Made by a program: the position numbers and the translations under genes
Notes under the pieces: model-generated
What the model saw: only the letters and a program-made list of their open reading frames with translations
Told to the model about the DNA's origin: nothing
Database searches by the model: none
Source of the DNA: Rhizophagus irregularis
Taxonomy: Eukaryota
Reading direction: 5' to 3'
Assembly (NCBI RefSeq): GCF_026210795.1
Contig: NC_089434.1
Location: forward strand, 2,232,001 to 2,296,000
DNA: 64,000 bases
Shown here: one piece after another, positions 3,358 to 44,151 of the stretch
Position numbering within the stretch: the stretch's first letter is position 1
How the letters are laid out: the number at the start of each line of letters is the position of its first letter

Positions 3358-3391
3358 ACTAGTTAATGCTCTTATAAGAGCATTAACTAGT
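3358..3391. other. Perfect 34-bp terminal palindrome (left)
   Basis: actagttaatgctctta|taagagcattaactagt. Confidence 0.95.
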
Positions 3392-4733
3392 TGCGCTATA
3401 ATGTTATCTAGTTATGAGTATAATGTTTTCTAGTTATGAGTATAATGTTACCTAGTTACTGTTTTTAGTGTTCTGTGGTCTTATTATTGCTTTATTGCTA
3501 TCCACTTGATTTTATTGCTCTGTCCTCTTTTTATTTCCTTCTAACTATCCGCTTGTTTTCATTGCTCTGTGGCCTTTTTATTGCCAAGGTGCTAGGCCAG
3601 TATTGATTGCAAAAAATCATGTTGCAGTCGGGTGGCGTAGTAAATTTGCGGATCAGATTTTGGCTGGCATTATAGCATAATTTCTGGTCGATCTTTTGGG
3701 CATGTGATTTTAGGTTCCAGCTTGGTGACATGATAGTGCTATGGTAGTATCATGGAATCATCATGGAACTGGCAGGGAACTGGCAGGGAATCAGAGTGTT
3801 TCTATTAGTTTGCCAGTTTAAGATCACTTCTTGGATGCCGAGTTATTGTCCAAAGTTTTGGCCAAAATTATTGTTAATTTACTGCACAAAAAAAAACATG
3901 TGCGAGGTGCGTTCTCAGAACCTTCCCACCACTTCTCCGTCATATTCCCACTACTTTCAAGGTTCTGTCTGAAGGATCAGATGGTTGAAGAATCAGAAGT
4001 ACCAAGATCAGCCTATGTAGTAATTACCAGGAATTAGTGCTGAATTTACTTGAAATCCCACTTTTATGTTTCCATTTGATTGCCAGGTTGAGGCACGAAA
4101 TGCCGAACTTGCAATCCATATATTTTCCCTCTCAAATTGCCATTTCTTGAATGCCGGGGATGAGGCATATGCGAAGTGTTAGTGTTGTGCTCATTCTTGC
4201 AATTCTGCCTTGTATGACCTTTTTGATTGCCGAGTGAGGCACATGCGAAGTGTCGAATTAGTTCAGACTATATTGCTTTCATACCTTTTTTCGTATATTC
4301 TCCTGAGACTTTCTGCCTTCCCGACCCCCTTTCCTGCCTATCGGCGGTAGTACCCCAAGTTGTAATTTCTTATTTCTCTTTCCTATATATTATTCTAACT
4401 TGGGGTACTACCAATTTTATATTTTATTTTTCGCTTCTGCCTTTCTAGAACCCTTTCTCGTATAGTTACTACTCTGGGATACTTTAGGATACTACCACAT
4501 CGACCACTTTGGAGTACTACCACATCGATCATTTTGGGGTACTACCACATCATTTACTTTCTCTTGGCTTGGCGCTGGGTATTACCACTAACCCAGTATT
4601 TTACTAGCAAAGCATATTCGCTCAAAATTATATAAAATTTTTATTTTAAACTTTCCAAGTTTCTCTGTTATTTTATACTGCTTTCTTGCATATACACCAT
4701 GCTTCTTGCACAAAAAAAGCCCAGCCCTAGCCC
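3358..4733 (+). repeat. Left terminal inverted repeat
   Basis: Reverse complement of 42786-44151; differences are mostly transitions; internal short repeats (tagttatgagtataatgtt; tactaccacatcga). Confidence 0.95.
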
Positions 4734-5408: not shown

Positions 5409-6286
5409 ATGCAAGACGAAATTGACATTAAAGCTCTGGCATATGCCCAGAGGCATGAAGAAAGATGCTTAGCTTAAGTTAGTCCTAATACATACTTTAC
5501 TAAAAATGACCAATTTTTTGAAATATTTTTATAGACCTAGATACAATGGCTTTCAAAACAATTGTGCAATTATTTTGTAAAATTTTTAAAATATATCAAG
5601 ATATATTTAAGGTATTTTTGAGATTAAAATATTAAAATAATATTAAAGTTAATTATATTATAATAATAAAATAATAACAAAAACATTAAAAAATTATTGT
5701 GATATTATTTTGAGTTATTTTTATAGACCTAGATACAATACAATTACAAAATAATAGCAAAAATATAATAAAAACATTTTGATGTATTAAATGTATTTTT
5801 ATAGTATTTTAAAATTATTACAAAATCATTTCAAAAAATTGGCCATTTTTAGTAAAGCATTTATGGGTGTGTAAGAAAAATCATCAATGGGAGGCGCCAT
5901 ATAAAAATATGAAGCAAAGTTATAGGTGGTGTAATATTTGCCCTAATGTACCGAAAAGAACATGCCATTATATTTTCGAAGATTTATTAAATAAAAAATT
6001 TCCACTCTGAAAACCTAAATTCTTGGAGGGATTACATTTAGATGGATATAATGAAGAATTAGGCTTGGCCTTTGAATATAGTGGTAGCCAATATTACCAA
6101 ATTGTCCCTTTTTTTCACCCGTAAAGGCAGATGAATCTAGACGCACAAATCTGGCGTGATGAAAAGAGGGCGCTATGCTATAGGGAAGGAGTAATTCTTA
6201 TAACTATACCCTACTGCGTAGTAGACTTAGAAACTTTTATAAGGAGCACCTTATACGCATTTGGTTATCTCCTAATACCCACCTAA
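5409..6286 (+). pseudogene. Zn-ribbon + PD-(D/E)XK restriction-like endonuclease of giant-virus type
   Basis: Manual translation WVCKKNHQWEA..WCNIC..GLHLDGYNEELGLAFEYSGSQYY..LITIPY; three in-frame stops; MITE at 5495-5857. Confidence 0.7.
5495..5857. mobile_element. MITE inserted in the nuclease gene
   Basis: TIRs ctttactaaaaatgaccaattttttgaaat / atttcaaaaaattggccatttttagtaaag; TA left, CA right; removal restores the frame. Confidence 0.8.
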
Positions 6287-7444
6287 AAGGCAACATATGC
6301 TCTTCTTTAATATGCATTAATTGTTCTCTTACAAAGGGACGCTGAGGTCCTAAATCATCTAAATAATATAAAACAAGCATTGGAGGGTTTCTCCCAACAA
6401 CAATTCTCTGGATCTTATGCATACTGGGAGACCATATCGGATTTGTTATTCTGCGTTGTTCAAAAGGATCATTTTTCCATTCTTCAGGAGCGAGCAAAAA
6501 TCGGATAGTAGTACCCTTTGGTAGTTGTGGTTCATCAACACCTATTGGACGATTATATTTTACTGATAGTTTGGAATATATCTGCTCAAGTTTTGTGATG
6601 TCATTAGGACTCATCTCAATCAATCGAGTTGGACTATCATTCATATTATCAACAATTTTTCTTGCAAACCGCTCACATTCTCTACAGTGCTTGCCAGTAG
6701 GTAGGAGAAACTCTATTAAATACTGATTTTTAAAAACTCTATATTCAAATAATCCAGCATAATGATCGATCATTGCGAAACTTATATGCCTGAAACATGC
6801 TATAATTCTTTGGATCTCAACGCCATGTTCATCCATTAATAAAGTCACGTATCCCATAAACTCAGTACCCTTATCACATTGTATTTTTCGAGGCCAGTTA
6901 AAAGGTTTATCAGGATTATCATATATACTCTTAAATGCTTCCGCAACTTCCTCACTGCTCTTTAATGTTAAAAAACGAAATCTTTATATCTAGTCGCGTA
7001 GTCTATAACCAATAGTACATAGTAATATATTGGGCCATCATCTAGTAAATTTGTATCCACATCTTCATCATATGGTATTTCGATTAAATCACATTGGTGC
7101 ACAGTATTTGGCTTCGTAATTTTAGAGTAACTGGCATAAGGTATATGCTTTGGTGAAGGACGAAAAATTTGATACATTGTTTGATTCTCAAGCCATTTTT
7201 TTACATCAATAAATGGAAAGCTGTAGCCAGCTTTTTTACAAGTATCCCACAATCCCTTAACATTTTGATACAGACCTTCAGGACGATAATATAGTTTTTG
7301 CAAAGCAAAATGCCGGTCTAAATTATGAGCTTTTTGGGGATCGATATTAATTGTAGGTGTTTGTTTTGCTATGATTTGGTCTAACTCTCGCGCTTTTTGA
7401 GGATTGATATAAATAACCGGTCTTTCAGCTTGACGCTCTTCCAT
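6237..7444 (-). pseudogene. Retroviral-like (rve) DDE integrase, Maverick/Polinton type
   Basis: LQKLYY..VKKWLENQ..PNTVHQCDL..IDYATRY, then after a frameshift near 6968 KSSEEVAEAFKSIY..IQCDKGTEF..NDSPTRLIEMSP. Confidence 0.85.
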
Positions 7445-7493
7445 TCCAATTTTTATAATTACGAAAAAAAGCTAGCATCTATAAAGTCAGATT

Positions 7494-8324
7494 CTATTTA
7501 TTAGCTAAGGAGCTTTTTTCCTTACGCTTTTGCCTAGCTTCTATCTCCTTCTGCAGATTTAGTGGAGTGTCAAACCTTAGGCGGATTGCAAGGGGATCAT
7601 CTTCCGGCCTAGTGAGATCAAATACAATAAATTCACCTCTTCGAAGGTAGCTATTAATAACTATGGATGCATTTTTTACATCATCAGTATAACGACCAAC
7701 TATCTTGGACACATCTTGTTGGCTACCACCACCGTTATACATTACTAGGTGGGAGATATTCTCACGAATGAATGTAGGGACTTTATGGTATTTTTGGGTT
7801 ACATATATACTTGAAACATTTTAATGACGTCCATTCCCAAAAAATTGGCTAATTCGATTTTGTATATGTTTGGAAATTTGCATCAGATCCTCAAAAATAA
7901 TTAGTGTGCTTCTTTCAGGTGAGAATGCTCTTGTACTAGGAATTCTTTCAGGTGAAATGTACCTGAAACTAATATCCTCATAGAAAGGCGCTTTTGGATC
8001 CTTTGCAATCATATTATATATATACCTCACATATCCCCATTTTGGCTCATCAGGATAATACCCACAAACAATTAGATCATTACATTTAATGTAGCGAGAC
8101 CCACCTTCCTCCCCTTCTTGCACATATTCATCCTTATCACCTAGAACAAGGTTTCTAAGTAAATTAGTCTTACCTGAACCACTTTTTCCAGTGACCAACT
8201 TGCTGAAAGGCTATGTCATCGCCGGATGGCCAATATTTTGGGATGATTCATGCTTTGTGACTTCATCCATATCTAAAAGACGAAGTTTTATAGGAGGTAG
8301 TCCTATCTTTTGGTTCTTCTGCAT
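7494..8324 (-). pseudogene. A32/FtsK-like DNA packaging ATPase (Polinton/NCLDV type)
   Basis: Walker A GKSGSGKT, Walker B IIFEDL, GRH*NVSSIYVTQKYHKVPTFIREN; two in-frame stops. Confidence 0.85.
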
Positions 8325-8325
8325 A

Positions 8326-9209
8326 TCAGATTGGAAATGCATAATCTTGATTTCTATTTAAGGGTATTTTATAGTTCAGAATATTTTTTTCTTCATTGTA
8401 AGATGAATATAGATGAGAGAATACGCACCTTAAGATGTATATAATTAGTAATACTATTATGAAGATGATTGCATGCTGAAAAAATAAGGAATAAGGCGAT
8501 TCTGAGGTTATTTCAGGACTAGTGATTTCGTTACCTTTCTCCAGTCCTTTATCACCTCCAATCGCTTCATTTTGCTTAGATTCGCTGGATGTTTTTGAAA
8601 TATGCTCTAATAAAAGAGAATTAGTTTCTTGAAGAAGGGAATCTTTCTCTATCACTGCCTTTTGTGCTGAAAGTAAATCATCTCTCACTCGCATTAATTT
8701 ATCCTTTTTTTTGGCCAGTGTATCTTCTAACTCTGTATTTGCCAATTCTAAACTAATATTTTCGTCAGATAGTTTTATGTATTCCAGTTCAGATTTACGC
8801 TTAAGAAAATCCATCTCTGATAATCTCTTTTGTACCAAAGAAACATCCTGCTCTAATTCCTCTATTCTTGATTGGAGAGCTTGTATCTCTTTTAATTTTG
8901 TAGCGATCTCGCTCTTAGTACTTGCAAGAGAAATCTCTTTTTGATTAATCTCATTTTTGAATTCTCTTGCTTCATCTTTAAGCTGGCATACACGCTCTGA
9001 AAAACTCTCATTATTTTTTATCAAGAGACTATTTCTAGTGCCAAGCTGAATACTTGAGCTTAAAGCGATATCTAGATCATGTTTTAAACGTTAGTTCTCA
9101 AGCTCAGTTCGGCTAGATGGATAACGATTAAATGGCGAATCTCCAAGTTTATTGCCAGATACCAAGGGTGTCTTATTATTTATTTCATTTAGCGTATATT
9201 TATTTGCCA
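8326..9209 (-). pseudogene. Coiled-coil protein with C-terminal hydrophobic (TM) segment
   Basis: 232-aa ORF with heptads and IIFIIVLLIIYIL; probable upstream ATG near 9209 separated by stops. Confidence 0.5.
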
Positions 9210-9799
9210 TATGAATTTATTTGAAGGCAAAGTTTTTTATGATTTTTTTTTTCCTGATGGCCATCAGCGAAATTATCATTCATATGTATATTTTTTTTTC
9301 GAATATGGAAAAAAGGAGTTCAGAATCAAACCAATATCAAACTAATAAAAGACCAATAATAAACTAGTTTAAAACAAATATGATATTTGAAGTATATATA
9401 TCCTAAACCTATTTTTTATTTGAATCATAATTATAGCACGTTACACTGTAAAGAAAGCGAACTACATATATGTAACACTGGTCAAAATCAATTCTATCGG
9501 GTACATATCGGGTACCTATATATCGGTGGCTAATCGGATAAATATCAGGTATTTTTACATATCGGGTACCCGATAGCTAAGCTATTAGTCACTGATATTG
9601 TATATCGGGCATTGATCTATCTTACATATATCAGGTACCCGATATGTAAATTTTAATACGTAAGATTTTTATTTTGTATAATGTACTGTATTATATATAA
9701 TCCGTTTCAACTAAAATTTTTTATTTAAATTCATTTTTTAGATAATTTTTATAAATAATTTTCTAAGAAATTTTAAAAGTCCATTTGAATAATATTTAA

Positions 9800-12700
9800 T
9801 AGGGATTTTATTTAAGAAACTTTTAAATAGATTTTTTTGAGAAATTTTTTAAGAGTTTGTTTGGAAAAATTATTTTTTTAACTAAGAGGATCATTTAGAG
9901 CATTTTTGATAGAGAATTTTCTAAAGATTTGTTTGGAGAGATTATTTTTGAGAATTTTTTAACTAAAGGGACCGTTTGGAACATTTTTTGATAGAGAATT
10001 TTCTAAGAATTTGTTTGGGAAATGGTTTTTTGAGAATTTTTTTAACTAAAAGGATCATTTGGGCATTTTTTGATTGAGAATTTTCTAAGAGTTCGTTTAG
10101 GGAAATTATTTTTTGAATTTTTTAATTAAGGGGATCGTTTAGGGCATTTTTTGATTGAGAATTTTCTAAGAGTTCGTTTAGAGAGATTATTTTTGAGAAT
10201 TTTTTAACCAAAGGGACCGTTGGAACATTTTTTGATAGAAAATTTTTTTGATAGAGAATTTTCTAAGAGTTTGTTTGGAAAAATTATTTTTTGAGAATTT
10301 TTTAACTGAAGGTATCATTTGATAGAGAAATTTCTAAGAGTTCGTTTAGGAAAATTATTTTTTGTATTTTTTAATTAAGGAGATCGCTTAAGACATTTTT
10401 GATAAAGAATTTTCTAAGAATTTGTTTGGGAAATAGGTTTTCAAGAATTTTTTAACTAAAAGGATCATTTAGGGCATTTTTTGATTGAGAATTTTCTAAG
10501 AGTTTGTTCAGGGAAATTATTTTTTGAATTTTTTAATTAAGGGGATTGTTTAGAACATTTTTTGATTGAGAATTTTCTAAGAGTTCGTTTAGGGAAATTA
10601 TTTTTTGAATTTTTTAATTAAGGGGATCGTTTAGGGCATTTTTTGATTGAGAATTTTCTGAGTTCGTTTAGGGAAATTATTTTTTGAATTTTTTAATTAA
10701 GGGGATCGTTTAGGGCATTTTTTGATTGAGAATTTTCTAAGAGTTCATTTAAGGAGATTATTTTTGAGAATTTTTTAACCAAAGGGACCATTGGAACATT
10801 TTTTAATAGAGAATTTTTTTGATAGAGGATTTTCTAAGAGTTTGTTTGGAAAAATTATTTTTTGAGAATTTTTTAACTGAAGGTATCATTTGATAGAGAA
10901 ATTTCTAAAAGTTCATTTAGGAAAATTATTTTTTGTATTTTTTAATTAAAGGGATCGCTTAGGGCATTTTTGATAAAGAATTTTCTAATGATTTGTTTGG
11001 AGAGATTGTTTTTGAGAATTTTTTAACTAAAATGAATGTTTGGAACATTTTTGATAGAGAATTTTCTAAGAATTCGTTTAGAAAATGGTTTTTCGAGAAT
11101 TTTTTAACTAAAAGGATTATTTAGGGCATTTTTTGATTGAGAATTTTCTAAGAGTTCGTTTAGGGAAATTATTTTTTGAATTTTTTAATTAAGGAGATCG
11201 TTTAGGGCATTTTTTGATTGAGAATTTTCTAAGAGTTCGTTTAGGGAAATTATTTTTTGTATTTTTTAATTAAGGGGATTGTTTAGTGCATTTTTTGATA
11301 GAGAATTTTCTAAGGATTCATTTGGAGAGATTATTTTTGAGAATTTTTTAACCAAGAGATCGTTTGGAACATTTTTTGATAGAGAATTTTTTAAGAGTTT
11401 GTTTGGGAAATGGTTTTTTGAGAATTTTTTAACTTAAAGGATCATTTAGAGCATTTTTGATTGAGAATTTTCTAAGAATTCGTTTAGGGAAGTTATTTTT
11501 TGTATTTTTTAATTAAGGGGATCGCTTAGAGTATTTTTGATAGAGAATTTTCTAATGATTCGTTTGGAGAGATTGTTTTTGAGAATTTTTTAACTAAAGG
11601 GAACACTTGGAACATTTTTGATAGAGAATTTTCTAAGAATTTGTTTGGGAAATAGTAGGACCCCAGATATCTCCAAAACAGGTCATAAGTCACACTTTCG
11701 GCAGATTGGCCCATTTTTCAGGGGCGCAAAAAATCATTTTTTGTAAATATCTCGGCATCCAGTGGTCCAATTTTGATGAACTTTTTTTTAAATTGTAGAG
11801 CTAAATGAGGGCTACAAAATAAAAAAAAAGTTCATTAAAATTGAATTACTGGATGCTGAGATATTTACAAAAAACGATTTTTTGAGTTTCAGCAAAAAGG
11901 GGTGTTTTTGGCCAAAAGTCCATTATGACCTTTATATTAGATATCCGGGGTCCTGAAATAGTTTTTCGAGAATTTTTTAACTAAAAGGATCATTTAGGGC
12001 ATTTTTGATAGAGAATTTTCTAAGAGTTCGTTTGGGGAAATTATTTTTTGTATTTTTTAATTAAGGGGATCACTTAGGGCATTTTTGATAGAGAATTTTC
12101 TAATGATTCGTTTGAAGAGATTGTTTTTGAGAATTTTTTAACTAAAAGGAACGTTTGGAACATTTTTGATAGAGAATTTTCTAAGAATTTGTTTGGGAAA
12201 TGGTTTTTTGAGAATTTTTTAACCAAAAGGATCATTTAAGGCATTTTTGATTGAGAATTTTCTAAGAGTTCGTTTAGGGAAATTATTTTTTGTATTTTTT
12301 AATTAAGGGGATCGCTTAGGGCATTTTTGATAGAGAATTTTCTAATGATTCGTTTGGAGAGATTGTTTTTGAGAATTTTTTAATTAAAGGGAACACTTGG
12401 AACATTTTTGATAGAGAATTTTTAAGAATTTGTTTGGAAATGGTTTTCGAGAATTTTTTAGCGAAAGAATCATTTAGGGCATTTTTGATAGAGAATTTTC
12501 TAAGAGTTTGTTTGGGGAAATTATTTTTTGTATTTTTTAATTAAGGGGATCACTTAGGGCATTTTTGATAGAGAATTTTCTAATGATTCGTTTAAAGAGA
12601 TTGTTTTTGAGAATTTTTTAATTAAAGGGAACGTTTGGAACATTTTTGATAGAGAATTTTCTAAGAATTTATTTGGGAAATGGTTTTTCAAGAATTTTTT

Positions 12701-15700
12701 AACTAAAAGGATCATTTAGGGCATTTTTGATTGAGAATTTTCTAAGAGTTCGTTTAGGGAAATTATTTTTTGTATTTTTTAATTAAGGGGATCGCTTAGG
12801 CATTTTGATGAGAGAATTTTCTAATGATTCGTTTGGAGAGATTATTTTTGAGAATTTTTTAACTAAAGGGAACGTTTGGAACATTTTTGATAGAGAATTT
12901 CTAAGAATTTGTTTGGGAAATGGTTTTTCGAGAATTTTTTAACTAAAAGAATCATTTAGAGCATTTTTGATAGAGAATTTTCTAAGAGTTCGTTTGGGGA
13001 AATTATTTTTTGTATTTTTTAATTAAGGGGATCACTTAGAGCATTTTTGATAGAGAATTTTCTAATGATTTGTTTGAAGAGATTGTTTTTGAGAATTTTT
13101 TAACTAAAGGGAACGTTTGGAACATTTTTGATAGAGAATTTTCTAAGAATTTATTTGGGAACTGGTTTTTTGAGAATTTTTTAACTAAAAGGATCATTTA
13201 AGGCATTTTTGATTGAGAATTTTCTAAGGATTCGTTTGGAGAGATTATTTTTGAGAATTTTTTTAACTAAAGGGAACGTTTGGAACATTTTTGATAGAGA
13301 ATTTTCTAAGAATTTGTTTGGGAAATGGTTTTTTGAGAATTTTTTAACTAAAAGAATCATTTAGGGCATTTTTGATTGAGAATTTTCTAAGAGTTCGTTT
13401 AGGGAAATTATTTTTTGTATTTTTTAATTAAGGGGATTGCTTAGGGCATTTTTGATAGAGAATTTTCTAATGATTCGTTTGGAGAGATTATTTTTGAGAA
13501 TTTTTTAACTAAAGGGAACGTTTGGAACATTTTTGATAGAGAATTTTCTAAGAATTTGTTTGGAAAATGGTTTTTCGAGAATTTTTTAACTAAAAGAATC
13601 ATTTAGAGCATTTTTGATAGAGAATTTTCTAAGAGTTCGTTTGGGGAAATTATTTTTTGTATTTTTTAATTAAGGGGATCACTTAGGGCATTTTTGATAG
13701 AGAATTTTCTAATGATTCGTTTGAAGAGATTGTTTTTGAGAATTTTTTAACTAAAGGGAACGTTTGGAACATTTTTGATAGAGAATTTTCTAAGAATTTA
13801 TTTGGGAAATGGTTTTTTTGAGAATTTTTTAACTAAAAGGATCATTTAGGGCATTTTTGATTGAGAATTTTCTAAGGATTCGTTTGGAGAGATTATTTTT
13901 GAGAATTTTTTAACTAAAGGGAACGTTTGGAACATTTTTGATAGAGAATTTTCTAAGAATTTGTTTGGGAAATGGTTTTTTGAGAATTTTTTAACTAAAA
14001 GAATCATTTAGGGCATTTTTGATTGAGAATTTTCTAAGAGTTCGTTTAGGGAAATTATTTTTTGTATTTTTTAATTAAGGGGATTGCTTAGGGCATTTTT
14101 GATAGAGAATTTTCTAATGATTCGTTTGGAGAGATTATTTTTGAGAATTTTTTAACTAAAGGGAACGTTTGGAACATTTTTGATAGAGAATTTTCTAAGA
14201 ATTTGTTTGGAAAATGGTTTTTCGAGAATTTTTTAACTAAAAGAATCATTTAGAGCATTTTTGATAGAGAATTTTCTAAGAGTTCGTTTGGGGAAATTAT
14301 TTTTTGTATTTTTTAATTAAAGGGATCACTTAGGGCATTTTTGATAGAGAATTTTCTAATAATTCGTTTGAAGAGATTGTTTTTGAGAATTTTTTAACTA
14401 AAGGGAACGTTTGGAACATTTTTGATAGAGAATTTTCTAAGAATTTATTTGGGAAATGGTTTTTTGAGAATTTTTTAACTAAAAGGATCATTTAGGGCAT
14501 TTTTGATTGAGAATTTTCTAAGGATTCGTTTGGAGAGATTATTTTTGAGAATTTTTTAACTAAAGGGAATGTTTGGAACATTTTTGATAGAGAATTTTCT
14601 AAGAATTTGTTTGGGAAATAGTTTTTTGAGAATTTTTTAACTAAAAGAATTATTTAGGGCATTTTTGATTGAGAATTTTCTAAGAGTTCGTTTAGGGAAA
14701 TTATTTTTTGTATTTTTTAATTAAGGGGATCGCTTAGGGCATTTTTGATAGAGAATTTTCTAATGATTCGTTTGGAGAGATTGTTTTTGAGAATTTTTTA
14801 ACTAAAGGGAACGTTTGGAACATTTTTGATAGAGAATTTACTAAGAATTTGTTTGGGAAATGGTTTTTCAAGAATTTTTTAACTAAAAGGATCATTTAGG
14901 GCATTTTTGATAGAGAATTTTCTAAGAGTTCGTTTAGGGAAATTATTTTTTGTATTTTTTAATTAAGGGGATCATTTAGGGCATTTTTGATAGAGAATTT
15001 TCTAATGATTCGTTTGGAGAGATTGTTTTTGAGAATTTTTTAATTAAAGGGAACATTTGGAACATTTTTGATAGAGAATTTTCTAAGAATTTATTTGGGA
15101 AATGGTTTTTCAAGAATTTTTTAACTAAAAGGATCATTTAGGGCATTTTTGATAGAGAATTTTCTAAGAGTTCGTTTGGAGAGATTATTTTTGAAAATTT
15201 TTTAACTAAAGGGAATGTTTGGAACATTTTTGATAGAGAATTTTCTAAGAATTTGTTTGGGAAATGGTTTTTCGAGAATTTTTTAACTAAAAGAATCATT
15301 TAGGGCATTTTTGATAAAGAATTTTCTAAGGATTCATTTGGGGAGATTATTTTGAGAATTTTTTAACCAAGGGATCGTTTGAAACATTTTTGATAGAGAA
15401 TTTTCTAAGAGTTCGTTTGGGGAGATTATTTTTAAGAATTTTTTAACCAAAGGGATCGTTTGGGACATTTTTTGACAGAAAATTTCTAGGAGTTCATTTG
15501 GGGAAATTATTTTTTGGGATTTTTTTAACTAAAGGGATCATTTAGGACATTTTATTTTTAATAAAGAAATTCTAAGAATTCATTTGGAAGATTTTTTGAG
15601 ATTTTTTTAATAAATCTTCTAAGGGTTCATTTGAAGAAATTTTTTAAAAAAGTTTTTTAACTAGAGGGGTTATTTCAAATATTTTTTTGATGAGAAATTT

Positions 15701-15770
15701 TCTAAGAGTTCATTTGGAAAGATTTTTTTTTGATAATTTTTAATCGAAGGGGTCATTTGGATTGAGAAAT
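9800..15770. repeat. ~80-bp satellite array with ~240-bp three-variant higher-order repeat
   Basis: Recurrent gagaattttctaaga..tttagggaaattatttttt units cycling through three variants; ends degenerate. Confidence 0.9.
11656..11955. mobile_element. 300-bp MITE inserted in the satellite
   Basis: TIRs aggaccccagatatct / agatatccggggtcct; aaatag duplicated at 11650-11655 and 11956-11961. Confidence 0.85.
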
Positions 15771-16695
15771 TTTTGTTTTTCAACGTAATTTTACCAAATT
15801 TAATTATAAATGTATTCAGGCTATAAAATAACATGTGGTAAGTTACGTTACGTAATATTGTTATCATGTGATCACATAATTTAAATATTTACATTTCGCA
15901 TTTTTGTTTATCTTATTAAAACCTTTTCTTCGTTCTCAATTTTTTTTTACTTAAAAACACAATTTTTTATCTATTTAATATATCCAGAAATACATATTTT
16001 TATATTTTTTTTTGTTTGTTATATCTAGAAATGCATAAAAAGGTATATATTACTAATATTTCTTTTCTTTATTAATGTTTTTCTACCATTTTTTTTTCGT
16101 TTCTTTCTTTTCTTTTACTAATACTCCTACTAATATATTTTTTATTATTTTTTTCTACTATATTAACATTTTTACTATTTAATATTTTCTATTAATATTA
16201 TATTACTACTGATATACGTTCTCTTTCTACTAACATTTTTTATTCTACTAACTTTTTCTTTCTGCTAATGTTTCTACTAATATTTTCTATATTTATATAT
16301 CTATACTAATATTTTTTAATAACATTCTCTTTTCTCTTACTAATATATTTATCATTAATGCTTCTTTTAAATAATCAAACAGGTATAAGCAAACAAGTGA
16401 TTTTATTTTTATGCTACTTTTAGTAGAAGTTATATATTATATATATTTATTCAAGTATTCAAGTATAATTAGTATAATTGTTTTTTTTTAATTAAAAAGT
16501 GTAAATAAATTTAAATTGTAATAAAGTTTTGAATTAAAATTAAAAAAATATATAAATTATGATTGCATTTTATAATTTTTTTGCCTGAAATAACAAACCA
16601 ATGCCAGACTAATGCCAGACCAATGTCAGACCAATATAAAATAAATTTTCTACAAGTTTTTTATTAGTATTATACAGATTTATTACTAGCAAACT

Positions 16696-17118: not shown

Positions 17119-17342
17119 AGCCAAAATATGAATCTTCTTCTGCAGATAAAGTAGCCAATTCTTTTAAAGATGATATATCTAGACGGGAATTTGATCTTAA
17201 TAAATTAGTAAATATTACTAGAGAAGCTGTCATGCATTTGATCTATTCTCCATAAGTCGTAAGCATTTTTCTGCAAGAATATTACCTGCATTTAATGCCA
17301 TGTCAAGCCATCTCTCAGTTTTTAATAGTTGCTCTTCAAGCT

Positions 17343-20300
17343 TTACGCACTTTTTTTTAAGTTCTCTTCACTATTTGGGCTAGAGGAGTTGGTAGATGTT
17401 TGGTCCTGATCTTCTTTTAGCGGATCCTTGACTACCGAAGCCTTGCTAAAAGTTAGGATAATATATACCTTTCCATGTAACTTTATGCGAAACTGGTTTT
17501 TATTTAGATCGGGAACGCCTTGAACTTTTCGAATGTTTGACATATCAAAAAATAGCATTGGTTCTGTTTCACCATTATCAATACGAACAAAATTTCCAAT
17601 AACTGTGACCGTCTTATCTTCTTTATCCTTCAAAGTAACTGGCACGTCTGTATACCATCCTAATGAATCGGTGATATGCTTGGAATTGCCCTTTATAGCA
17701 AAATTAGATGGTTTATCAGCCTTCCATCCAAGCGCCTTGATTGCTGGGTCATTTATACCACTGACCGAACTCACTGGCAGTATCTAAAAAAGATTTGGAA
17801 ATAATTAAATCATTTATATTAGCATTCAGATATTGTAAAGATGACAACCACTCATCTGATTCTTTCGATTCCTCCTCCTGAGCCTTTCGAGACAAGCACA
17901 TTTTTCATATCGGTGGTGAGAGCTTGGACAATAGCTGATCGTACATTTCAGGTTGGCTAGATTCTAGGGGTGAGATTGCATTAGTATCACTGGTCAACTT
18001 ATCATTTACCTGTTTTTTTTTTCTGATGCATAATACCACCCATTTTCTACTTTGTCATAACCATCTTCCTCATTATCTGAATCTGGAGGCGTATATTGGG
18101 GCTGTGTAGATAGAAGTTGAAGATAGTAATATTGAGTAAAATTGGATTTAGCTACAGGATTTAATCTTGGGCAATTGTTTTTCTTATGCCCTTCCTGTCC
18201 ACAATTACTGCAATAAAAAGGCTTTCGAGATTGATCATTAAGTGATATCCTACCAAACTTAGATGTCATTTGACCAATTTCATCTATTTTTGATTCTAAT
18301 CTATCGATTCTAGATGATTGCAACTTTTCTGGCTTTTGCGGTTTAGGAGGTAGTCCATAAGCTTTTACGACCACTCTCATTATTTCTTCCCTAGTAAGTG
18401 TATCAGGGAAAGAATTAGCGCTTTCATATGTATCAAGAAGCTGTTCCATATTTTTATGAGGAACTGGTGGAGGTATCTTTTTAGTTTACTAGACCATTTG
18501 TGATTGGAAATCGGCTTTTTGTTTTTCTAATAAAGACTGGTATTCAGTTTTTTGCTGTGCTAGTGCATTCTGGATTGCTTTTTGCATATCTTCGAAAGAT
18601 ATTCCATGCTGTTGTGAGGCTGAAACAGGTGAAAGTTCATATATTTGCCGAGATGTTTGATTAGATACTAACAGATCAGATGTTCTATCGCTTTTATGTC
18701 TAGCTATTCGGCGTAATTCTATCTCATAAAGCTTTTTAGCTAATTCATCTAATGGCAAATGTTCACCAATATCTTCAGCTTTTTTAAGCAATAAAAGTGG
18801 TAAAGCATCTAAGAACTTTCTACGTAATTCTTCAGGTCTATAGTTGGCTCGTCTATCTATTCATAATATTTTTCTATATAATTCATCTATAGTCATGTCT
18901 CCCTTTCTAATTGTTCTATACATGAAATCCCAAAGTTCCTCTTCTACTGTAAGGAAATGAGTTTTTAGCCACCATACGGCTTGACCAAATCAAATACCAG
19001 CTATAACTACTGTATTTCCAGCATTAGCATTTGGTGCATTTACAGGAGCATTAGTAGGACGGCCACCTGCTATATGCCAGTCTTCATTCTAAGCATCTTC
19101 TACAGCTCTTAATTTGAATATTGCATTTCCTGGTTGGCCAACAGCCTCATTTAATGCATTAGCTCCTATCTGTACTGCAGTTCATCCATTTACTGCAACT
19201 AAGTTAGCCTGCCCTGTATTATCGAGTAAGTTAGTTAGCTCCCAATTCTGCTTTGTAGTAATCTCATCATCAAACCATTCTAAAGTCCTTCCTCTCATAA
19301 CGGCTTTTAAATGTCCTATTGCATTATTTCTTCCTGTTGGAGGACTTGCTGCATTATCATTTGGATCTATTCCCTGATTCTGCAAGTCTAGTCTAAGTTG
19401 TGCAAGAAAGTCTGGGATACTATCATCCCAGTCAAAATATGAATAAGGTATTCCTGCCATGTTTACTTGATTAGGTAGATTATTCTGAAGTGCCAAAATT
19501 TGTTCCTGCAAATTTAAATTATTCTGTCGCTCTGCTTGGGTCTTATTTTTCCATTTCTCGTATCGCTCATAGAGCCTATCACAATTAAATTCTAACAGAC
19601 CTATATTCCCTCTACTTCGCTGTAAGTGATGGGCATTTTGCTGATATAGCAATTGTAAGGCAAATTTTTCCTGTAGCAATATACCAATACAGATTCGCTT
19701 TCCTGTTATATTGTCTAACATTCTATTTACTTGATTTCGAGCATTGGTCCGCAACTGATAAAGGTCAGCAATAACCATTTGTTCCACTCCTTTAGCATTT
19801 TGCCTTCATATAATTTCATTATCATGCTCAGCCTCTACATCATATCGCCTTTGTTGCTCACGGACTAAATCCTAATGCAAATTATTCTCTTTTCAGCAAA
19901 TCTGCCTTGTCGCCCTTTTTATTTGATCAGCCAAGATTTCTCTACCTATTGTTGTATTATTCAGATAACCATCTATAGCATTTGCTAGCTCTGTGATGAT
20001 AGCCATTTCTAAGTTAATATTAGGATTATACAAGTCTAAAGAATTCCCTTGTTCTGGCAAATTTTTTTGTGATGAAATGGTTCTGATCCGACATCGCAAT
20101 TTCTCTACCTGTTCCTCAGAATTTACTAACTGATTTTCTATACTAGAAATATGTTTTTCATTATCACAAATATCCTTCTTAGCTTGATATAGTTGCTTTT
20201 AATTTCAGACTGGAGATTTCAGATTTTAACTCTACTATCTTTTCTTTCGAAGCATTTTCAAGGCGCTCTATCTCCCTATTGAGATCTTGAATTTTTTGCT

Positions 20301-20469
20301 CACATCAGGCATAATCTCGTTCCAGTTGATTAATTTGTCTCTCATTTTGGTGATTAGTATCAATTTCTATCTGCAATTCATTACGAAGATGATAATTCTC
20401 TTCTTCCAGCTCAGCTTTATGTTCTTCACATGTTTTTCTCTGCCTTGGGTGAGATCTGTGAAATGACAT
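17343..20469 (-). pseudogene. Coiled-coil + Gag-like + CCHC zinc knuckle + retropepsin-like aspartic protease; no RT
   Basis: Collinear ORF fragments; MRGRTLEWFD Gag-like segment, CSNCGQEGHKKNNC knuckle, FLDTASE near 17780 followed by IKALGW..SLGWYTDVPV. Confidence 0.75.
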
Positions 20470-20762: not shown

Positions 20763-21578
20763 TTAGACAATTGTGATTAGTGTTCCATTTCTCAATCTTA
20801 ACGCAGTGCCTTTTGGCTGATTAAGATGGGTTAAGTTTTTTTGTTTTGCATATATAGATGAGATAAATATTTCGCTTCCACTTGTTCTATCAAACTGCAG
20901 GAGGGAATCAGGTGTAATTTTTTCAGGATATAATACCCCCCTCTGGTCAGAAGATTTTTCACACAATATTTCTGACTTTGATCTTGCAAGAAGATAGGCT
21001 TCTATATATTTATTAGTCTTGGAACATGAGTTATCCCAATGATTCTTCATCAAATCTTCAGGCTTAATCTTATACCCATATCTCCGCCATCCACTGAAAT
21101 ATGTCTTTTTTGGTTTTTCATCAGTGATCTTTACTAATTTCCAACAATCGAAACAAATAGCCATTTTGCTATTGTGAATATTAGGTCTGTGATAACCAAT
21201 GGCAACTTCTCTCCCTTCGTAGTTACTATAGTATGTCTTGGTTACTCCTTGTCCAGATGATCTGAAAAGGCAGAATACATGATAATAACTTTTATGGCCT
21301 TCAGTAATCAATGCTTGCAAAGCGTCTTTTACACGAATAGCCCATTGCTGAGGAGTTTCATACGAACTAATAATAGATAAATTATCATATCTTTTTTCCA
21401 CCTCAATCATCTTTTCGAATTGACCAGGATAATGAAAACCATATTTGTTTCTAATATATTCAATATCGTATCCAGGATGAAGATTGATGGGTTTAGGCAC
21501 AATTTTATTATAATCATTGTCTAAAATAATGTCAATACACTTATTAGGCCTTGGTCTGTTAATATGAGTTCCTGACAT
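20763..21578 (-). CDS. Hypothetical protein (271 aa), possible Zn-binding CxxC..H..C
   Basis: Uninterrupted ATG ORF; CFDC...NHWDNSC. Confidence 0.6.
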   Translation of the reverse strand: MSGTHINRPRPNKCIDIILDNDYNKIVPKPINLHPGYDIEYIRNKYGFHYPGQFEKMIEVEKRYDNLSIISSYETPQQWAIRVKDALQALITEGHKSYYHVFCLFRSSGQGVTKTYYSNYEGREVAIGYHRPNIHNSKMAICFDCWKLVKITDEKPKKTYFSGWRRYGYKIKPEDLMKNHWDNSCSKTNKYIEAYLLARSKSEILCEKSSDQRGVLYPEKITPDSLLQFDRTSGSEIFISSIYAKQKNLTHLNQPKGTALRLRNGTLITIV

Positions 21579-27102: not shown

Positions 27103-28860
27103 TTAGGCGGTTACCGGAGAGATAATAGGACTCATCATTGGGGAGGTTTTTCTTTCGTATCCTTCATCGCGATAGTAATAACCTCTATCACATTCACCAT
27201 ATTCATTATATCCACCGTATCCACCATATCCATCATCATCTGAATCGTCTGGAATCTCATCTTCAGAATTACTATCGGAATCAGAGTCATCATTAATTGA
27301 ATTGGGGTCGCCATCGTGCTTATTAACTTTGTTCGCCTTACCAAAATACACATCATCGTCTGAAGTGACAGTGTTCACTTTAGTGGGATTCGCCTCATTG
27401 AAAAACATATCTTCATCAAACCACGCCTCTTCCTTGGAATTATCAGAAGAATTAGAGGGTCTCTTTGGGACTGAGTCATGGGCTAATGGGATATGTGCAG
27501 TTGATTCCTTTGGAAACAAGACCTCTAATACATTATTCTGATCGGGAGTATTTACAGGCAAATTTTTTCTGGGACATAATGTCTCAGAAATTTCAGTCAC
27601 ATGATCCGTTACCAGAGGTAATTTTTCCGAAGATATTCCATAATTTATAACATCTTGAATTTGCTCATTAGTAAGCTCTGAAATAGAAGTTGCACTATAA
27701 GATTTGATATACTTGATTTTATCTAAGCCCACTTGTTCGATAAATTTATAGACTTTCTTAGCTCTCTGGGTTTTCTTGCGCAAACTATTTTGTGATACAC
27801 CTCGAAGCTGTAATCCCGTTTCTTGGGATCTCTGTTTACGAAGCAAATTAAGCTGTTTTGTAATGGAATCATACAGTAAGCCTCTTGCCTTCTTTTCATC
27901 AAATTTACCTCCATTACTTTCTATGATTCCATTGAGCTGAATTATGAAATCTTTCGCATAGAGGTACCAGTATAAAATTTCTTCCTGATTAGCTCGATTG
28001 GCTTTATCTTCAGCATCAAAAGCTTTATCGCATAACTGAGCTAGATATTGTGAGGCCTCATCAATGCTGGATTTATCAGAGGTAACTTTTCCTGGACATA
28101 ATGTCTCGGAAATTTCGGTCACATGATTTTGTTCTATTGATGGCTCTTATGAAGACAACTCCGAAGCAAATAATTCTTGCTTAAGCTTGTCCATACTCTT
28201 CCCCTTCTTGCACTTTGAATCCAGTTCGCTACATATCTTTTCTTCTGATGACGTGCTATTGCATGGCTGAGTGACCGAGTTGAGAACTTGAGACATTTTC
28301 TCTTCGGGATGTGTTGGAAGGGACTCTTGGGTTTGGCCAAAGGTGCTAAAGCAAAGTTTCTTTTCTCGATTTTTCTGCCTAATCTCATTACTAACCTTTT
28401 TCTTATACTTCTCATCCAAGAAAGCGTCCGTTTCCTTGTCTTCAGGTAATGAAGTATCCACCAATGGTTTCTCGTGATGTGTTACCGTTGGCACCTGATT
28501 TGTGACCAAATTGAAGTTAGATGAACTGATGTTAGAAGAATTATCATTTGCCGTTAAGGTGCTTTGCAGAGTCTGCTTCTGTTCCACTTTCGTGAGTTTA
28601 TCTCTAAACTCAGCATTCTCGGCCCTGAGTTTGGCATTATCAGCATCACGCCTCTTGTTATATTCTTTATTCGCTCTTAGAAATTCAGCATTCCTGCGCT
28701 TAAGTTCAACTATTTCAGCATCAGACACTGAGAGCTTGTTTCTAAGATAGGAGATTTCAGTATTCTCCTTCCTAAGCTCTGCATTCTCAGCCTCAAGCTT
28801 GACGTTCTTAAATTCAAGTTCAGTGATACGCTGTTTCAATACTTCAAGCTCAGATGACAT
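27103..28860 (-). pseudogene. Coiled-coil protein with acidic tail; broken between two ORFs
   Basis: 237-aa and 339-aa collinear ORFs; internal duplication of HVTEISETLCP. Confidence 0.6.
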
Positions 28861-36769: not shown

Positions 36770-37623
36770 TCACCGCTCCTGACTAGTTAGATTGGTAGTG
36801 TACCACCCCGCCATAGAGAGTCTTGTTAATTCCAGATTAAGAAAAGCAGAAATAAAATTATTATTAGAGAACCCAGATTGGGTCGAAATCTGTACATTAC
36901 TAACCTGTCTAAGACAATCACTAAATGCAGTAATAAAATCAGGCGCATTTTCCTTTTCAGCTTGAATAAGCATTTCTACCATTTTATCAGGATCAAGATC
37001 GTGACTATAATAACATCCAAATCTTTCGATATACCTTTGACTTTCTGATGACAATCCTTTATGGAATATTTCTCTAAGATGATTTTTACAGAACTTGATA
37101 ACATCATTACATCTCTTTATCTTCGAGTAATAATCCACTATTGAGTCTTCACCTTGAAGCAATAACCCATACCAGAACTTATCTACTTCATCTGCATTAT
37201 CATCTATCTTAATCTCATTTTTATCAATACCATCCGGCCATATTTCCTCTCAAAGTTCCTCAGCACTATATGGCAATTCTATTAGGTTCAAAATTTGCGG
37301 AAGATAAAAAGCATCAGATTGTGTAAATGTATGGAGTATTGATGTTGGATTTCTTACACCAGGCAGACTATATACAAATTATTTAAGTATTTTCTCCCCC
37401 AATGCCTGATTGCCTTTGTCTTCCAATAAATTTTGATTTCGCAAAATAGATCTTCCCAGTCTTGCCACTCTGATATAAATTCAGGATTTCCTTTATTATC
37501 CCATTCATACTTTGATCCATATTCTTTGATAAATTCATTGTAGCCTTCATCTGTCTCGTCATCTGACATTTTGCTAATAGAGCAATTATACTTAATAAAA
37601 AATAAAGTACTGGTAGTGTGCAT
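36770..37623 (-). CDS. Small protein(s) with a retrotransposon Gag-like segment; gene model uncertain
   Basis: LQGEDSIVDYYSKIKR..LREIFHKGLS resembles the Gag major homology region. Confidence 0.45.
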
Positions 37624-37852
37624 AGCTTCTTTTCAGTATATGCAAAAATTATGTTGCACATGACCTGACTGATGATCCACTTATTTTTCTGTCACACAGG
37701 AGTGGCCCAGCAAATTCTTCCGAGCTGATGATCATCACTCCAGACGAAAAAATAGCAATGCACCTTCGGTGAAATTATGTGATCACTGCTCCAGACTACA
37801 GTGGATCAGAAAACCTCTGCATAGTAGAAGGCATTGTGTTAAACTAGCAAAT

Positions 37853-39559: not shown

Positions 39560-42500
39560 GAATCAAAGAGTTCCTGAATATCGTTATCTGGTTTTGGCCT
39601 ATATGGTGGAAGTTCTGGTGCATCTTTATCTCCAAAACCAGTACTGTTATATGGCTGGCGATTAATTCGATATGAATATTACCTAACTTGTTGTCCTTTA
39701 GGCCCTATTCTTTTTTTATCACTTTTTTGCATTGATTGCCTTTATAGCTGAATTAAGATCTGGTGTTGTCTTAGCATGAGACTTAAAGCCAAAGAGTGAT
39801 AAAAACTGATTTCGAATTTCTATAAATCTTTCACAGGATTGCACGAATGCTTCTGATACAATATTACCAGGAAGGATACGTTTATCATCAATGCTGGTAA
39901 AGCCTAATATTTGAAAGAGTTCTCTTATAGCCTTCCAATGATTTGCTGAATAAGATTTACGCAAGTCTTCTGCCACTGATTTTTCCAGATTCTCTTCAGC
40001 TTTATGGCAGGCCATTTCCCATTGTACATTTTCCTCAGTTTTCAATCCCTTCATTGCATTCTTCTCATCATGACCTTGCCTTCGGAAATAAGACAATTGT
40101 AAGAAATGCTTCTGAGCTTCAGGCGAACTAAAATTTTTAACGAATTTTCTATTGCAAATATTATCCCAATCCTCAATACTCATGTCTTTGCAATAAATAT
40201 TTCGCATATAAAAACGTTAAGTACTATAGTATCTGCGATAGAGTGCTCTTGGTCGAATTTAAGGTCTTTAAGGCTAAGATTTTGAGAAGTAGCAACTGCA
40301 TTAAAATCCGTTTCTTTAATAACTAATGCTAACCTCATTATGGATTCTTTTACGGTTCCCTATAACTCCTCGACTTTTATACATTTTTATTAGTTAGAGA
40401 GAAGCGCCAGTACTAGCTATAAGACTACAAAGCTTCTCAATAAAGTATCTCGCAGAAAGGCGTTTCTGATGCTTAACTTCAATAAATATTATTACAGCTG
40501 GAGATTCATCAATTTTATAAGAAATGGTATTGTTATCCTATTTACGATGACCTTTTATTGCTGTAGGTAAGTTATTAGGCCGAGCACTTTCAAGTTCTGC
40601 CCTAATATTTTCACGACCTGATGGGCAAAAAAGTTCGTTAGAATTTTTCTGATAGAATATAGAAACAATACGGCGAGAACAATCACGAATTCAATAAAGC
40701 ATTTGTGCAAAAGCTTCGACATGAACTGGAGTGGCGATGTTTGTAATAGCTATAACTATATCGAAGTGACCTGTAACCTCGAATGATATTCCTGCCTCCA
40801 TTATATTTGTATAAGCTATACAGTCAAGCTCACTCCAAGCGACATTAATATCAGAAAAGTCTTTTTGACGTTGTTTTCCATCCATATCTCCATAATAAGC
40901 ACAGGCTCTAACAGGCGAATTATCAGGTTTAGACAACTTAGATGCTTTTTCCACTAACGCTCTAGCTATCACCACTCCGGTAAATACAAATGCCACACGC
41001 TTACCCTGCCTCAAAAGGTCATATCCTATTCGCATAACTTCTGCTCCACTATTTGAATCATAAATAAATTCAACCGTCTCACCTATACGAGGCTGATACT
41101 TATTATCGACTACGCGAATATTTTCACCACAATAAATCTGGAGGAAGGTTAGTGTTGAGATATTTGCGAAGGCATCTATGGCCAAAACATGCATTGCAGA
41201 TCTTAAGACATCACGCATTGCGTTTTCAGATTCCCGTGCATTTGTACCGCTAAACATTTGGCGCATAATGGCATTAGATTCATCGAGAATAGCTACAAAC
41301 GGACGGGCTGTGAATTCGACACGAAAGAGGCTTTCAACCTGTACTATGATAATATCCCACTCATTTATAGATAAGTCTCCTTGCATATTTTGGTAGTTGC
41401 AAATTTGGAAGCCAGATGCTTTTAACTCATTAAGTTTGGATTTTGATTCATTGCTAAGAGACTTTCGGTAAAAGATCCAGATATAACATGGTAAAAAAGA
41501 AATATCATGTACTTTATCTTTCAATGCCATAATAATCTCTCTTAATGTAGTGGTTTTCCATGTCCTCAGAGGAGAACGAATAAGTGTTGTCATTTTCTCA
41601 ATACCCAAGAAATCAGAATATACTTCCAAAGCATCCTTTAATTTTTCTACATTAATTGCCATTTCTGATAATTCTATAAGAGGGCGTGGATTTGATATAG
41701 CATCACCTATTCTTTCGACTATTCCTCTCTTAGGTTTTGTAGAAATTTCAGTCACTTTTCCAAATGCTAATCCCTTATGATCTGGCTTATATTGATTTTG
41801 CTGATAGCATTTAAGTACAAAATGGCCGTTACTTCGAAGAAAGCTATATAATTGATCTCTTTCATGTTTGATTCCGCAAATAGGACATGCTTCATATAAC
41901 TTTGCTTGGAAGTTGACAAATCCCTTTTTAATATGGCCAATTTCAAGCCACTCATATTTTGCTGTAACTAAACCAGCTCTCTTGCTTAAAGCGGTTTCAT
42001 CTTCGATAGGTTGGAATTCATCCTTTTCTAGCTTTTCAGAAGAAAAGGTCTGTTGCCAGATTTCAGAATAATCAGATTTAGGTTGAACTAAATAATCTTC
42101 TAGCTTGTGATATCCTTGTTTAACTGAAGAAACCACGGGTCTTTTAACTCTATCTTCCTTTGCCGATCCAAGAAGCTGAAGACTAAAACGTGATTTATAA
42201 AGTCCAAGGTCAATAAATTCAGAATATGGTTTTCCAATCTTATCAGCAACTTTTTTCACAAATCCTCTAAAGTCTCTGTAGTCAACGAACCGTGCATATT
42301 TATACATGATATGCCAGCTACATTTATCAGAATTAGACGAACTGGCTAAGGCAAAAGCATCTAATATTGCAAAATGTTTTAAGTCAAAATATAAGATATC
42401 GGTGCAGGCAATTAAGATTCTGGATAATAAATCTTCACGAGAACTTTTACTTCCATCTAAGGAAGGGAGTTCAGGATTCATAGGATTGGGGTTCTGCCTC

Positions 42501-42817
42501 GCATCAATATCCAGAACCAGACAGAGAGGCAGATTCCCATCAATGCACTCGTGAGTATCAGGAATCCCATAAATTTCAGATGGATGATCAACTATCGTAA
42601 AACCCTTTTCTGACACTCGAACTATATATTTTGAATAAATCTCTTCAGGATGATAGGCTTCTAGAAGAGAAATATCATTTTTATTATTGGACAAATATTG
42701 AAAATACACATGATCATTGTAACCAGGCTCAAAATCAAGGTCGGCTAAACCAGAGAAGAGCCTGGTTGCATCATTTATTGTTTTAGGGCTAGAGCTGCGG
42801 TTTTTTTGCGCAAGCAT
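39560..42817 (-). pseudogene. AEP/PrimPol primase fused to a Zn finger and UL9-like (origin-binding) SF2 helicase
   Basis: VLDID, KCSWH, IDLGLY (AEP motifs); CPIC..H..C; IRSPLRTWKT, VQVESL, ILDE, AQMLY*IRD; stop at 40691, collinear fragments to ~39560; ATG lies inside the right TIR. Confidence 0.85.
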
Positions 42818-44151
42818 GGTATATGTGCAAGAAAGCAGTATAAAATAACAGAGAAACTTGGAAAGTTTAAAATAAAAATTTTATATAATTTTGAGCGAAT
42901 ATGCTTGCTAGTAAAATACTGGGTTAGTGGTAGTACCCAGCGCCAAGCCAAGAGAAAGTAAACGATGTGGTAGTACCCCAAAGTGATCGATGTGGTAGTA
43001 CTTCAAAGTGGTCGATGTGGTAGTATCCTAAAGTATCCCAGAGTAGTAACTATACGGGAAAGGGTTCTAGAAAGGCAGAAGCGAAAAATAAAATATAAAA
43101 TTGGTAGTACCCCAAGTTAGAATAATATATAGGAAAGAGAAATAAGAAATTACAACTTGGGGTACTACCGCCGATAGGCAAAAAGGGGTCAGGAAGGTGG
43201 AAAGTCTCAGGAGAATATACAAAAAAAGGTATAAAAGCAATATAGCCTGAAATAATTCAACACTTCGCATGTGCCTCACTCAGCAATCAAAAAGGTCATA
43301 CAAGGCGGAATTGCAAGAATGGGCATAACACTAACACTTCGCATATGCCTCATCCCCGGCATTCAAGAAATGGCAATTTGAGAGGGAAAATATATGGATT
43401 GCAAGTTCGGCACTTCGTGCCTCAACCTGGCAATCGAATGGGAACATAAAAGTATGATTGCAAGTAAGTTCGGCACTAATTCCTGGTAATTACATAGGCT
43501 GATCTTGGTACTTCCGATTCTTTAACCATCTGATCCTTCAGACAGAACCTCGAAAGTAGTGGGAATGTGACGGAGAAGTGGTGGGAAGGTTCTGGGAACG
43601 CACCTCGCACATGTTTTTTTTGCGCAGTAAATTAACAATAATTTTGGCCAAAACTTTGGACAATAACTCGGCATCCAAGAAGTGATCTTAAACTGGCAAA
43701 CTAATAGAAACACTCTGATTTCCTACCAGTTCCCTGCCAGTTCCATGATGATTCCATGACACTACTACAGCACTATCATGTCACCAAGCTGGAACCTAAA
43801 ATCACATGCTCAAAAGATCAACCAGAAATTATGCCATAATGCCAGCCAAAAACTGATCCGCAAATTTACTGCGCCACCTGACTGCAACATGATTTTTTGC
43901 AATCAATACTGGCCTAGCATCTTGGCAATAAAAAGGCCATAGAGCAATGAAAACAAGCGGATAGTTAGAAGGAAATAAAAAGAGGACAGAGCAATAAAAT
44001 TAAGTGGATAGCAATAAAGCAATAATAAGACCACAGAACACTAAAAACAGTAACTAGGTAACATTATACTCATAACTAGAAAACATTATACTCATAACTA
44101 GATAACATTATAGCGCAACTAGTTAACGCTCTTATAAGAGCGTTAACTAGT
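42786..44151 (-). repeat. Right terminal inverted repeat
   Basis: Reverse complement of 3358-4733. Confidence 0.95.
44118..44151. other. Perfect 34-bp terminal palindrome (right)
   Basis: actagttaacgctctta|taagagcgttaactagt. Confidence 0.95.

Follow-up and report, generated by a model that had tools for sequence, protein, structure and literature searches.

Gene content of the locus

We analysed a stretch of 64,000 nucleotides of the Rhizophagus irregularis genome (contig NC_089434.1, positions 2,232,001 to 2,296,000), here called the window, in which the minus strand between 20469 and 17343 encodes, in this order, a long coiled coil, a Gag capsid (CA) region, a CCHC knuckle (Pfam zf-CCHC, E 1.7e-4) and a retropepsin-like region (Table 1). 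These four parts had been predicted for the gene and were all present. The original prediction also described a single reading frame that ends right after the protease. A natural stop does close the protease at 17345, and an LKK-type tail like the one found at this stop is C-terminal in 26 of 83 homologues, but the gene consists of two ORFs, with the protease in the -1 frame relative to Gag, and both are decayed by stops and frameshifts. We counted 11 premature stops, 10 in the Gag frames and one in the protease frame, and two frameshifts near 20200 and 17770. Two frame breaks are natural, namely the end of Gag at 18006, just past the A10 run, and the stop at 17345. Past the protease the gene meets a convergent gene, and no direct repeats (LTRs) flank it in the window, both as originally stated.

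Table 1. Features of the element and of the Gag-protease gene (positions are those of the window).
Feature	Position	Strand	Remarks
Left TIR	3358..4733		1,376 bp, 95.3% to right TIR; contains 22-, 47- and 25-bp tandem repeats
Left terminal palindrome	3358..3391		Perfect, 34 bp; TSD copy 3353-3357 directly outside
Integrase-like gene	6237..7444	-	Split by a frameshift near 6970-6983
A32-like packaging ATPase, broken	7497..8354	-	Pfam Pox_A32 E 4.8e-13, read through with X
Coiled-coil protein with hydrophobic C-terminal stretch	8329..9090	-	Fused to protease in gene model P0054
Later insertion	9478..16589		~7.1 kb, 81-bp satellite, ~70 copies; missing from sister locus L035
Convergent gene	16696..~17252	+	3' of protease also in L026 and L035
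42-codon tail	17230..17358	-	-1 frame, opened by A8 run at protease end; meets convergent gene
Retropepsin-like protease ORF, decayed	17343..18022	-	-1 frame relative to gag
A10 run, likely recoding site	18013..18022	-	At gag/protease overlap; A9-10 in sister loci
Gag ORF, decayed	18006..20469	-	Coiled coil ~330 aa; capsid domain 19460-18690; CCHC knuckle 18215-18168
Integrase-start stub, 17 codons	20495..20548	+	Back-to-back with gag ATG
Intact 271-aa ORF	20763..21578	-	RNA reads from sister copies map onto it
Second, unrelated Gag CA C-terminal-like fragment	36950..37210	-	29-39% to family Gags
Tyrosine-recombinase-like ORF, 408 aa	37853..39079	-	ESM Atlas 0.95 to ResT/TelK clusters
Replication protein, UL9-type helicase	40691..42817	-	Pfam Herpes_ori_bp E 7.2e-15; NCBIfam CyRepA1 E 2.2e-19; adjoins right TIR
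Right TIR	42786..44151		Outer end is perfect palindrome 44118-44151; TSD copy 44152-44156

The gene lies inside a terminal inverted repeat (TIR) element of 40.8 kb with 1,376-bp TIRs, the left and right copies of which are 95.3% identical. We regard the element as complete in the window because each outer end is a 34-bp palindrome and a target-site duplication (TSD) of 5 bp stands immediately outside both palindromes. A candidate compensatory change between the two terminal palindromes was not used as evidence, since the paired difference consists of two CpG transitions. About 5 kb inside the element (at about 30.4-35.3 kb) match sequence outside it, and minus this repeat and the satellite insertion of ~7.1 kb the element core measures ~29 kb. 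AT-rich repeat arrays with 52-, 120-, 128- and 140-bp units are common to 30434-35029 within the element and 47674-52479 outside it, and these two stretches are apparently two copies of another repeat element. The satellite insertion shows higher-order units of 162 and 242 bp and is interrupted by a small inverted-repeat element near 11670-11950. A larger inverted-repeat pair (570-2406 and 60792-61713, pieces 96-99% complementary and ~59-61 kb apart) encloses the 40.8-kb element, which may thus be nested within another TIR element. Decayed ORFs (44447-46700, plus strand) were seen directly beyond the right TIR. The window's copy of the element is itself dead.

Other genes of the element

The packaging ATPase that had been reported for the element was recovered between the TIRs, and at 72% it resembles gene model P0078. 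The two pieces of the neighbouring integrase-like gene gave no match in Pfam, NCBIfam or PDB; the 5-bp TSD and motifs read by eye, which we take to be of the Polinton DDE type, fit a retroviral-like DDE integrase. For the replication protein, we presume from motifs read by eye that its N-terminus is primase-like. Pfam searches of the element ORFs and read-through frames yielded no protein-primed PolB, and the UL9-type helicase gene is present instead. Profile searches for a double jelly-roll major capsid, a penton and a cysteine protease were negative in every element ORF and in the six read-through frames of the 5.5 kb between 21579 and 27102. Both negatives refer to a single decayed whole element, and Pfam may miss a divergent jelly-roll; the earlier statement that no capsid is visible holds for the window copy, purely as a negative search of one decayed copy. 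The intact ORF upstream of gag had no domain match and no usable ESM Atlas match.

Some of the gene content appeared to be cargo. An ORF with a Crinkler N-terminal domain (35581-36033, minus strand, Pfam E 1.6e-11) represents host-type cargo, and the ORFs at 27103-30226 (minus strand), coiled-coil and others, had no Pfam match above the cut-off and are probable cargo as well, as they resemble what we take to be common expanded gene families of arbuscular mycorrhizal fungi. A second decayed Gag-like gene is located at 36773-37632 (minus strand), and in the similar proteins P0324, P0336 and P0342 the protease precedes the CA segment, which is an unusual order.

The ORF at 37853-39079 is possibly a telomere resolvase. 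Its family shares the residues R217 (70 of 73 sequences), K259 (64/65), R327 (61/62), H358 (39/57) and Y369 (59/59), presumably the catalytic ones, and this R-K-R-H-Y pattern is also that of the telomere resolvases ResT, TelK and TelA and of the phaeovirus FirrV-1-B51 family. The nearest named ESM Atlas clusters were those of ResT and TelK, with a score of 0.95 but 158 of 256 features in common, which is below the guide value of 170, and the palindromic DNA ends of the element are a candidate substrate. In contrast to the telomere resolvases (PF16684), none of 74 family members had a Pfam match, and the H358 position is Q in the window copy and in total in 18 of 57 homologues. The structure model (pLDDT 66) gave weak Foldseek hits to Cre (E 0.26) and TelA (E 0.57), nothing significant came from the PDB, viral or wide searches, VIA remained blank, and the family profile found nothing among PDB sequences.

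The Gag/protease junction

An A9-10 run was found at the gag/pro junction in all seven sequences that span it, and an A8-9 run at the protease end in four of five. The junction linkers (60, 66, 60, 66, 69 and 96 nt) are all multiples of three in length, and KK[K/N/R] forms the C-terminus of 17 of 45 long representatives, compared with one of 120 control proteins. Taken together, the A-runs, linkers and C-termini favour a -1 shift made by the ribosome or the polymerase. Three observations count against such a shift: no stimulatory hairpin followed the A-runs (structure z -1.9 to +1.1), in locus L050 a stop is found right past the A-run in the -1 frame, and the linker resembles an intron.

Gag and protease might also be joined by splicing out an intron of 53-59 nt, an alternative that concerns expression only and that we regard as unlikely. 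GT, a TACTAAT branch-like motif and TAG occur past the A-run, their removal restores the frame, and gene models P0010 and P0078 were built with such an intron. However, the -1 frame is open through the linker in the window and in L026, L038 and L042, the four distinct linker lengths differ by multiples of three, L035 has no GT, and the corresponding acceptor in L050 is out of frame. In three RNA runs, gag-pro reached a depth of at most 2.4 per direction, compared with up to 18 on the neighbouring ORF (reads from sister copies), and the depth of 1-2 at the junction represents too few reads to show or exclude splicing.

Distribution of the family and absence of reverse transcriptase

All 32 named sequences among 35 Gag matches and all 59 protease matches belonged to Glomeromycota, and the CA profile retrieved 455 clusters at 50% identity. 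Scans of viral contigs with Gag-Pro, ATPase, helicase, recombinase and integrase and a scan of prokaryotes with the protease yielded no loci. In Entrophospora-type copies (L050, P0045-P0048 and P0053) a different CA family is placed between the same coiled coil and protease, which suggests swapping of the capsid module.

The homologues did not turn out to sit mostly in LTR elements with reverse transcriptase (RT). A YxDD-type RT motif was absent from all 229 homologues, and Pfam detected no RT domain in the 36, 48 and 65 proteins scanned, the last being 65 of 146 new representatives, mostly the longer ones. The longest of the 59 protease homologues had 816 aa (357-2000 aa searched), and the best 150 of the 455 CA clusters did not exceed 893 aa. 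Because the family splits its ORFs, the DNA context weighs more than protein length. After three loci (L054-L056; E 2e-4, 39 aa) were left out as probable chance matches, 53 remained, of which four reach past the protease. All four have a convergent gene and none has a pol gene on the sense strand: L026 and L035 carry the convergent gene of the window, L050 has a convergent ORF in the same place, and L053 has a convergent chromodomain gene (Pfam Chromo E 2.5e-16), which does not align to the window integrase (E 2.1).

Linkage of Gag-Pro to the element

In each of the 11 informative loci, which cover the gag ATG and 75 or more bases ahead of it, the other strand carries an integrase start back-to-back with that ATG, and in L033 and L040 this start continues into the integrase body. 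Six of 59 protease gene models (from Rhizophagus, Glomus and Cetraspora) extend into a coiled-coil or ATPase gene of the window type (P0078 with Pox_A32 E 9.8e-13), and the genes are therefore adjacent on one strand. The DNA of L035 shows the order gag, pro, convergent gene and then the sequence immediately upstream of the coiled-coil gene. The protease fusion P0054 and the recombinase homologue P0133 each lie on a 70,495-bp contig of Glomus cerebriforme, presumably the same one. Otherwise the upstream neighbours of gag differ among loci, which counts against the explanation preferred below. In L001, L015, L023, L024, L030 and L034, the integrase-start stub upstream of gag abuts sequence that resembles the 3' end of the ATPase gene (window 7463-7533), which indicates rearranged copies with a recurrent junction.

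Thus Gag-Pro was not absent from sister copies but kept beside the integrase start and the ATPase module. Judged from the sequences, it is a component of the element family and not a nested LTR relic, because its linkage to the integrase start (11/11) and the ATPase module (6/59) recurs. The original prediction had left room for a truncated LTR element, and a remnant of an LTR retrotransposon, or of a non-autonomous gag-pro element, that entered the giant element a single time and was then amplified passively would explain why CA, CCHC knuckle and protease follow the Ty3/gypsy Gag-Pro order and why most copies are decayed. With ORFs that are interrupted at A-runs, a separate pol ORF could escape a test based on protein length alone, and the chromodomain gene converging on the protease in the distant locus L053 could be an LTR-type pol end. 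We nevertheless consider this explanation very improbable and largely refuted. Besides the missing LTRs, the zero count for RT and the convergent gene without sense-strand pol in four of four loci, the family keeps its natural stops and includes intact Gag ORFs across five groups of Glomeromycota (Glomerales, Diversisporales, Archaeosporales, Paraglomerales and Entrophospora), and CA types that have diverged to ~30% identity still have their flanks in common.

Predicted capsid fold and protease

Structure prediction, which had been proposed as a check, supported a retroviral or LTR-type capsid fold for the CA region of the intact sister locus L007, which is 79% identical to the window CA. With the AlphaFold2 model (pLDDT 79), the top ten Foldseek matches were all Copia, PEG10, PNMA2, dArc1 or Ty3 capsids, albeit with weak E values (0.15-1.2). 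VIA aligned 83 residues to the PEG10 CA C-terminal domain (Z 10.7, rmsd 2.8), and all 11 VIA rows with Z of at least 8 were Gag capsids. An insert of ~85 aa (NWEL...GI) in the CA N-terminal domain is kept in all subfamilies (L007:726-1493; window 19460-18690); it was modelled with low confidence, and it is possible that it forms a surface spike.

The family protease profile was nearest to DDI1 retropepsins (E 0.16), and distant family members matched Pfam Asp_protease_2 (E 1e-4 to 2e-6). A canonical D[ST]G occurred in few of 41 protease motifs (DSAS 9, DPGS 9, DNGS 6, DSGA 3), and the motif of the closest subfamily, often DSAS, DPGS or DNGS, weighs against Gag as a shell.

A putative virion shell

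The explanation that we prefer, and to which we give slightly better than even confidence, is that the window contains a decayed Gag-protease module from giant TIR elements that form a family in Glomeromycota and carry an A32 ATPase together with an integrase-like gene, and in which the module likely forms the particle shell, taking the place of the jelly-roll capsid and the cysteine protease found in Polintons. Such a family would have arisen when the morphogenesis genes of a Polinton-like element were replaced by a retrotransposon Gag-Pro. Gag would be made in bulk, and slippage of the ribosome or the polymerase on the A9-10 run would shift the frame by -1 and extend a minority to Gag-Pro, giving a retrovirus-like stoichiometry. 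The element would be copied as DNA by the primase-helicase, the recombinase would act on the terminal palindromes and perhaps produce hairpin ends, the ATPase would load the DNA into Gag shells or condense it with them, and the integrase would insert the element, leaving the 5-bp TSD. A role of Gag as virion shell in place of the jelly-roll is plausible as far as sequence data go. To our knowledge, no A32 motor operates with a Gag shell, and by our own estimate a genome of ~29 kb would be tight in a capsid of Ty3 size, which counts against a shell. According to excerpts from one study, Polintons without a capsid tend also to be without the ATPase (PMC4028283), and because of this tendency the kept ATPase argues for some shell.

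The main alternative, which we hold to be somewhat unlikely, is that Gag-Pro serves a Polinton-like element as a fixed accessory gene and does not form the shell of its DNA. It might enclose RNA or proteins of the element, in the manner of Arc-like capsids, so that they can move along hyphae, or it might act against other retroelements, and the true capsid would then be a divergent or lost jelly-roll or be derived from a helper. The loci document linkage, and a shell function of Gag is a prediction; CCHC knuckles usually bind RNA, the 5.5 kb between 21579 and 27102 are without an assigned gene, the Crinkler domain and the second Gag fragment show that the element also carries cargo, and the protease motifs are often degenerate, all of which would suit an accessory gene. 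On the other hand, neither the ORFs nor the read-through frames contained any trace of a jelly-roll, and gag and integrase begin back-to-back in a fixed arrangement. In addition, clusters that are ~30% identical retain the two-ORF recoding arrangement, as expected of a structural protein and its maturation protease.

Relation to known elements

The element resembles Mavericks/Polintons in its long TIRs, short TSD, integrase-like gene, packaging ATPase of the A32/FtsK family and size of tens of kb. In contrast to these, a protein-primed PolB, a jelly-roll capsid and an adenain-like protease were not found, and Gag-CA, CCHC knuckle and retropepsin are present instead, together with perfect terminal palindromes and a helicase and a recombinase for replication. 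On these observations the element is Polinton-like, yet stands outside of Mavericks (no PolB) and of LTR elements (no RT, no LTR). The likeness to the gag-pro genes of Ty3/gypsy, Copia and betaretroviruses, the last of which are expressed by a double -1 frameshift, consists of the predicted CA fold, the CCHC knuckle, the retropepsin, an A-rich slippery overlap and a second A-run past the protease. The element differs from them in having no RT, RNase H or LTRs, a third frame that is only the 42-codon tail, the ~85-aa insert in the CA N-terminal domain and a coiled coil of ~330 aa in front of Gag.

Polinton-like viruses (PLVs) associated with entomopoxviruses, the capsid of which is a jelly-roll, are a further relative in gene order. 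One end of these PLVs carries a module of primase-helicase and tyrosine recombinase, and, in the part of PMC11296320 concerned (section 8), they share with the element the order TIR, primase-helicase and tyrosine recombinase as well as the packaging ATPase. They differ in having a D5-type helicase, whereas the element has one of the UL9 type, a separate integrase-like gene and Gag-Pro; the same paper ventures the guess that R. irregularis carries PLV-like elements with a primase-helicase (PMC11296320). Excerpts on Tlr1 of Tetrahymena describe, as for the element, a retroviral-like integrase and an ATPase without a canonical pPolB gene, but also jelly-roll major and minor capsids, an SF1 helicase and no Gag (PMC11161782, PMC4028283). 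Mavericks/Polintons have been described, in the portions available, as expanded in Glomerales (PMC11952901) and as part of the R. irregularis transposable element annotation (PMC8647823). In the literature covered, which lay outside of the founding Maverick papers (Pritham 2007; Kapitonov and Jurka 2006), Repbase and supplements, we found no description of Gag-Pro combined with ATPase and integrase, and the accessible parts of PMC5751038, PMC11161782, PMC6431247 and bioRxiv 10.1101/2025.06.16.659975 make no mention of Gag in such elements.

The element may be a DNA virus that packs its genome in a borrowed retroviral shell. A more far-reaching possibility, to which we give a little less than even confidence, is that it represents an undescribed group of integrating dsDNA viruses in mycorrhizal fungi, with a Polinton-type integrase, an A32 motor, a primase-helicase, a hairpin-telomere resolvase and a Gag capsid matured by a frameshifted retropepsin, without RT, and thus a chimera of jelly-roll virus and retrovirus virion. 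If Gag forms the virion, the element would be categorically new. As far as we know, retroviral-type capsids are confined to elements that use reverse transcription and to genes domesticated from them, and A32 motors occur only together with jelly-roll capsids. An A32 motor working with a Gag capsid would mean that two virus realms had exchanged a capsid. It would also call for a new definition of the 'Mavericks' described as abundant in Glomerales, and the element would be a possible vehicle that carries 30 kb of DNA, cargo genes included, from one nucleus or species of these plant symbionts to another.
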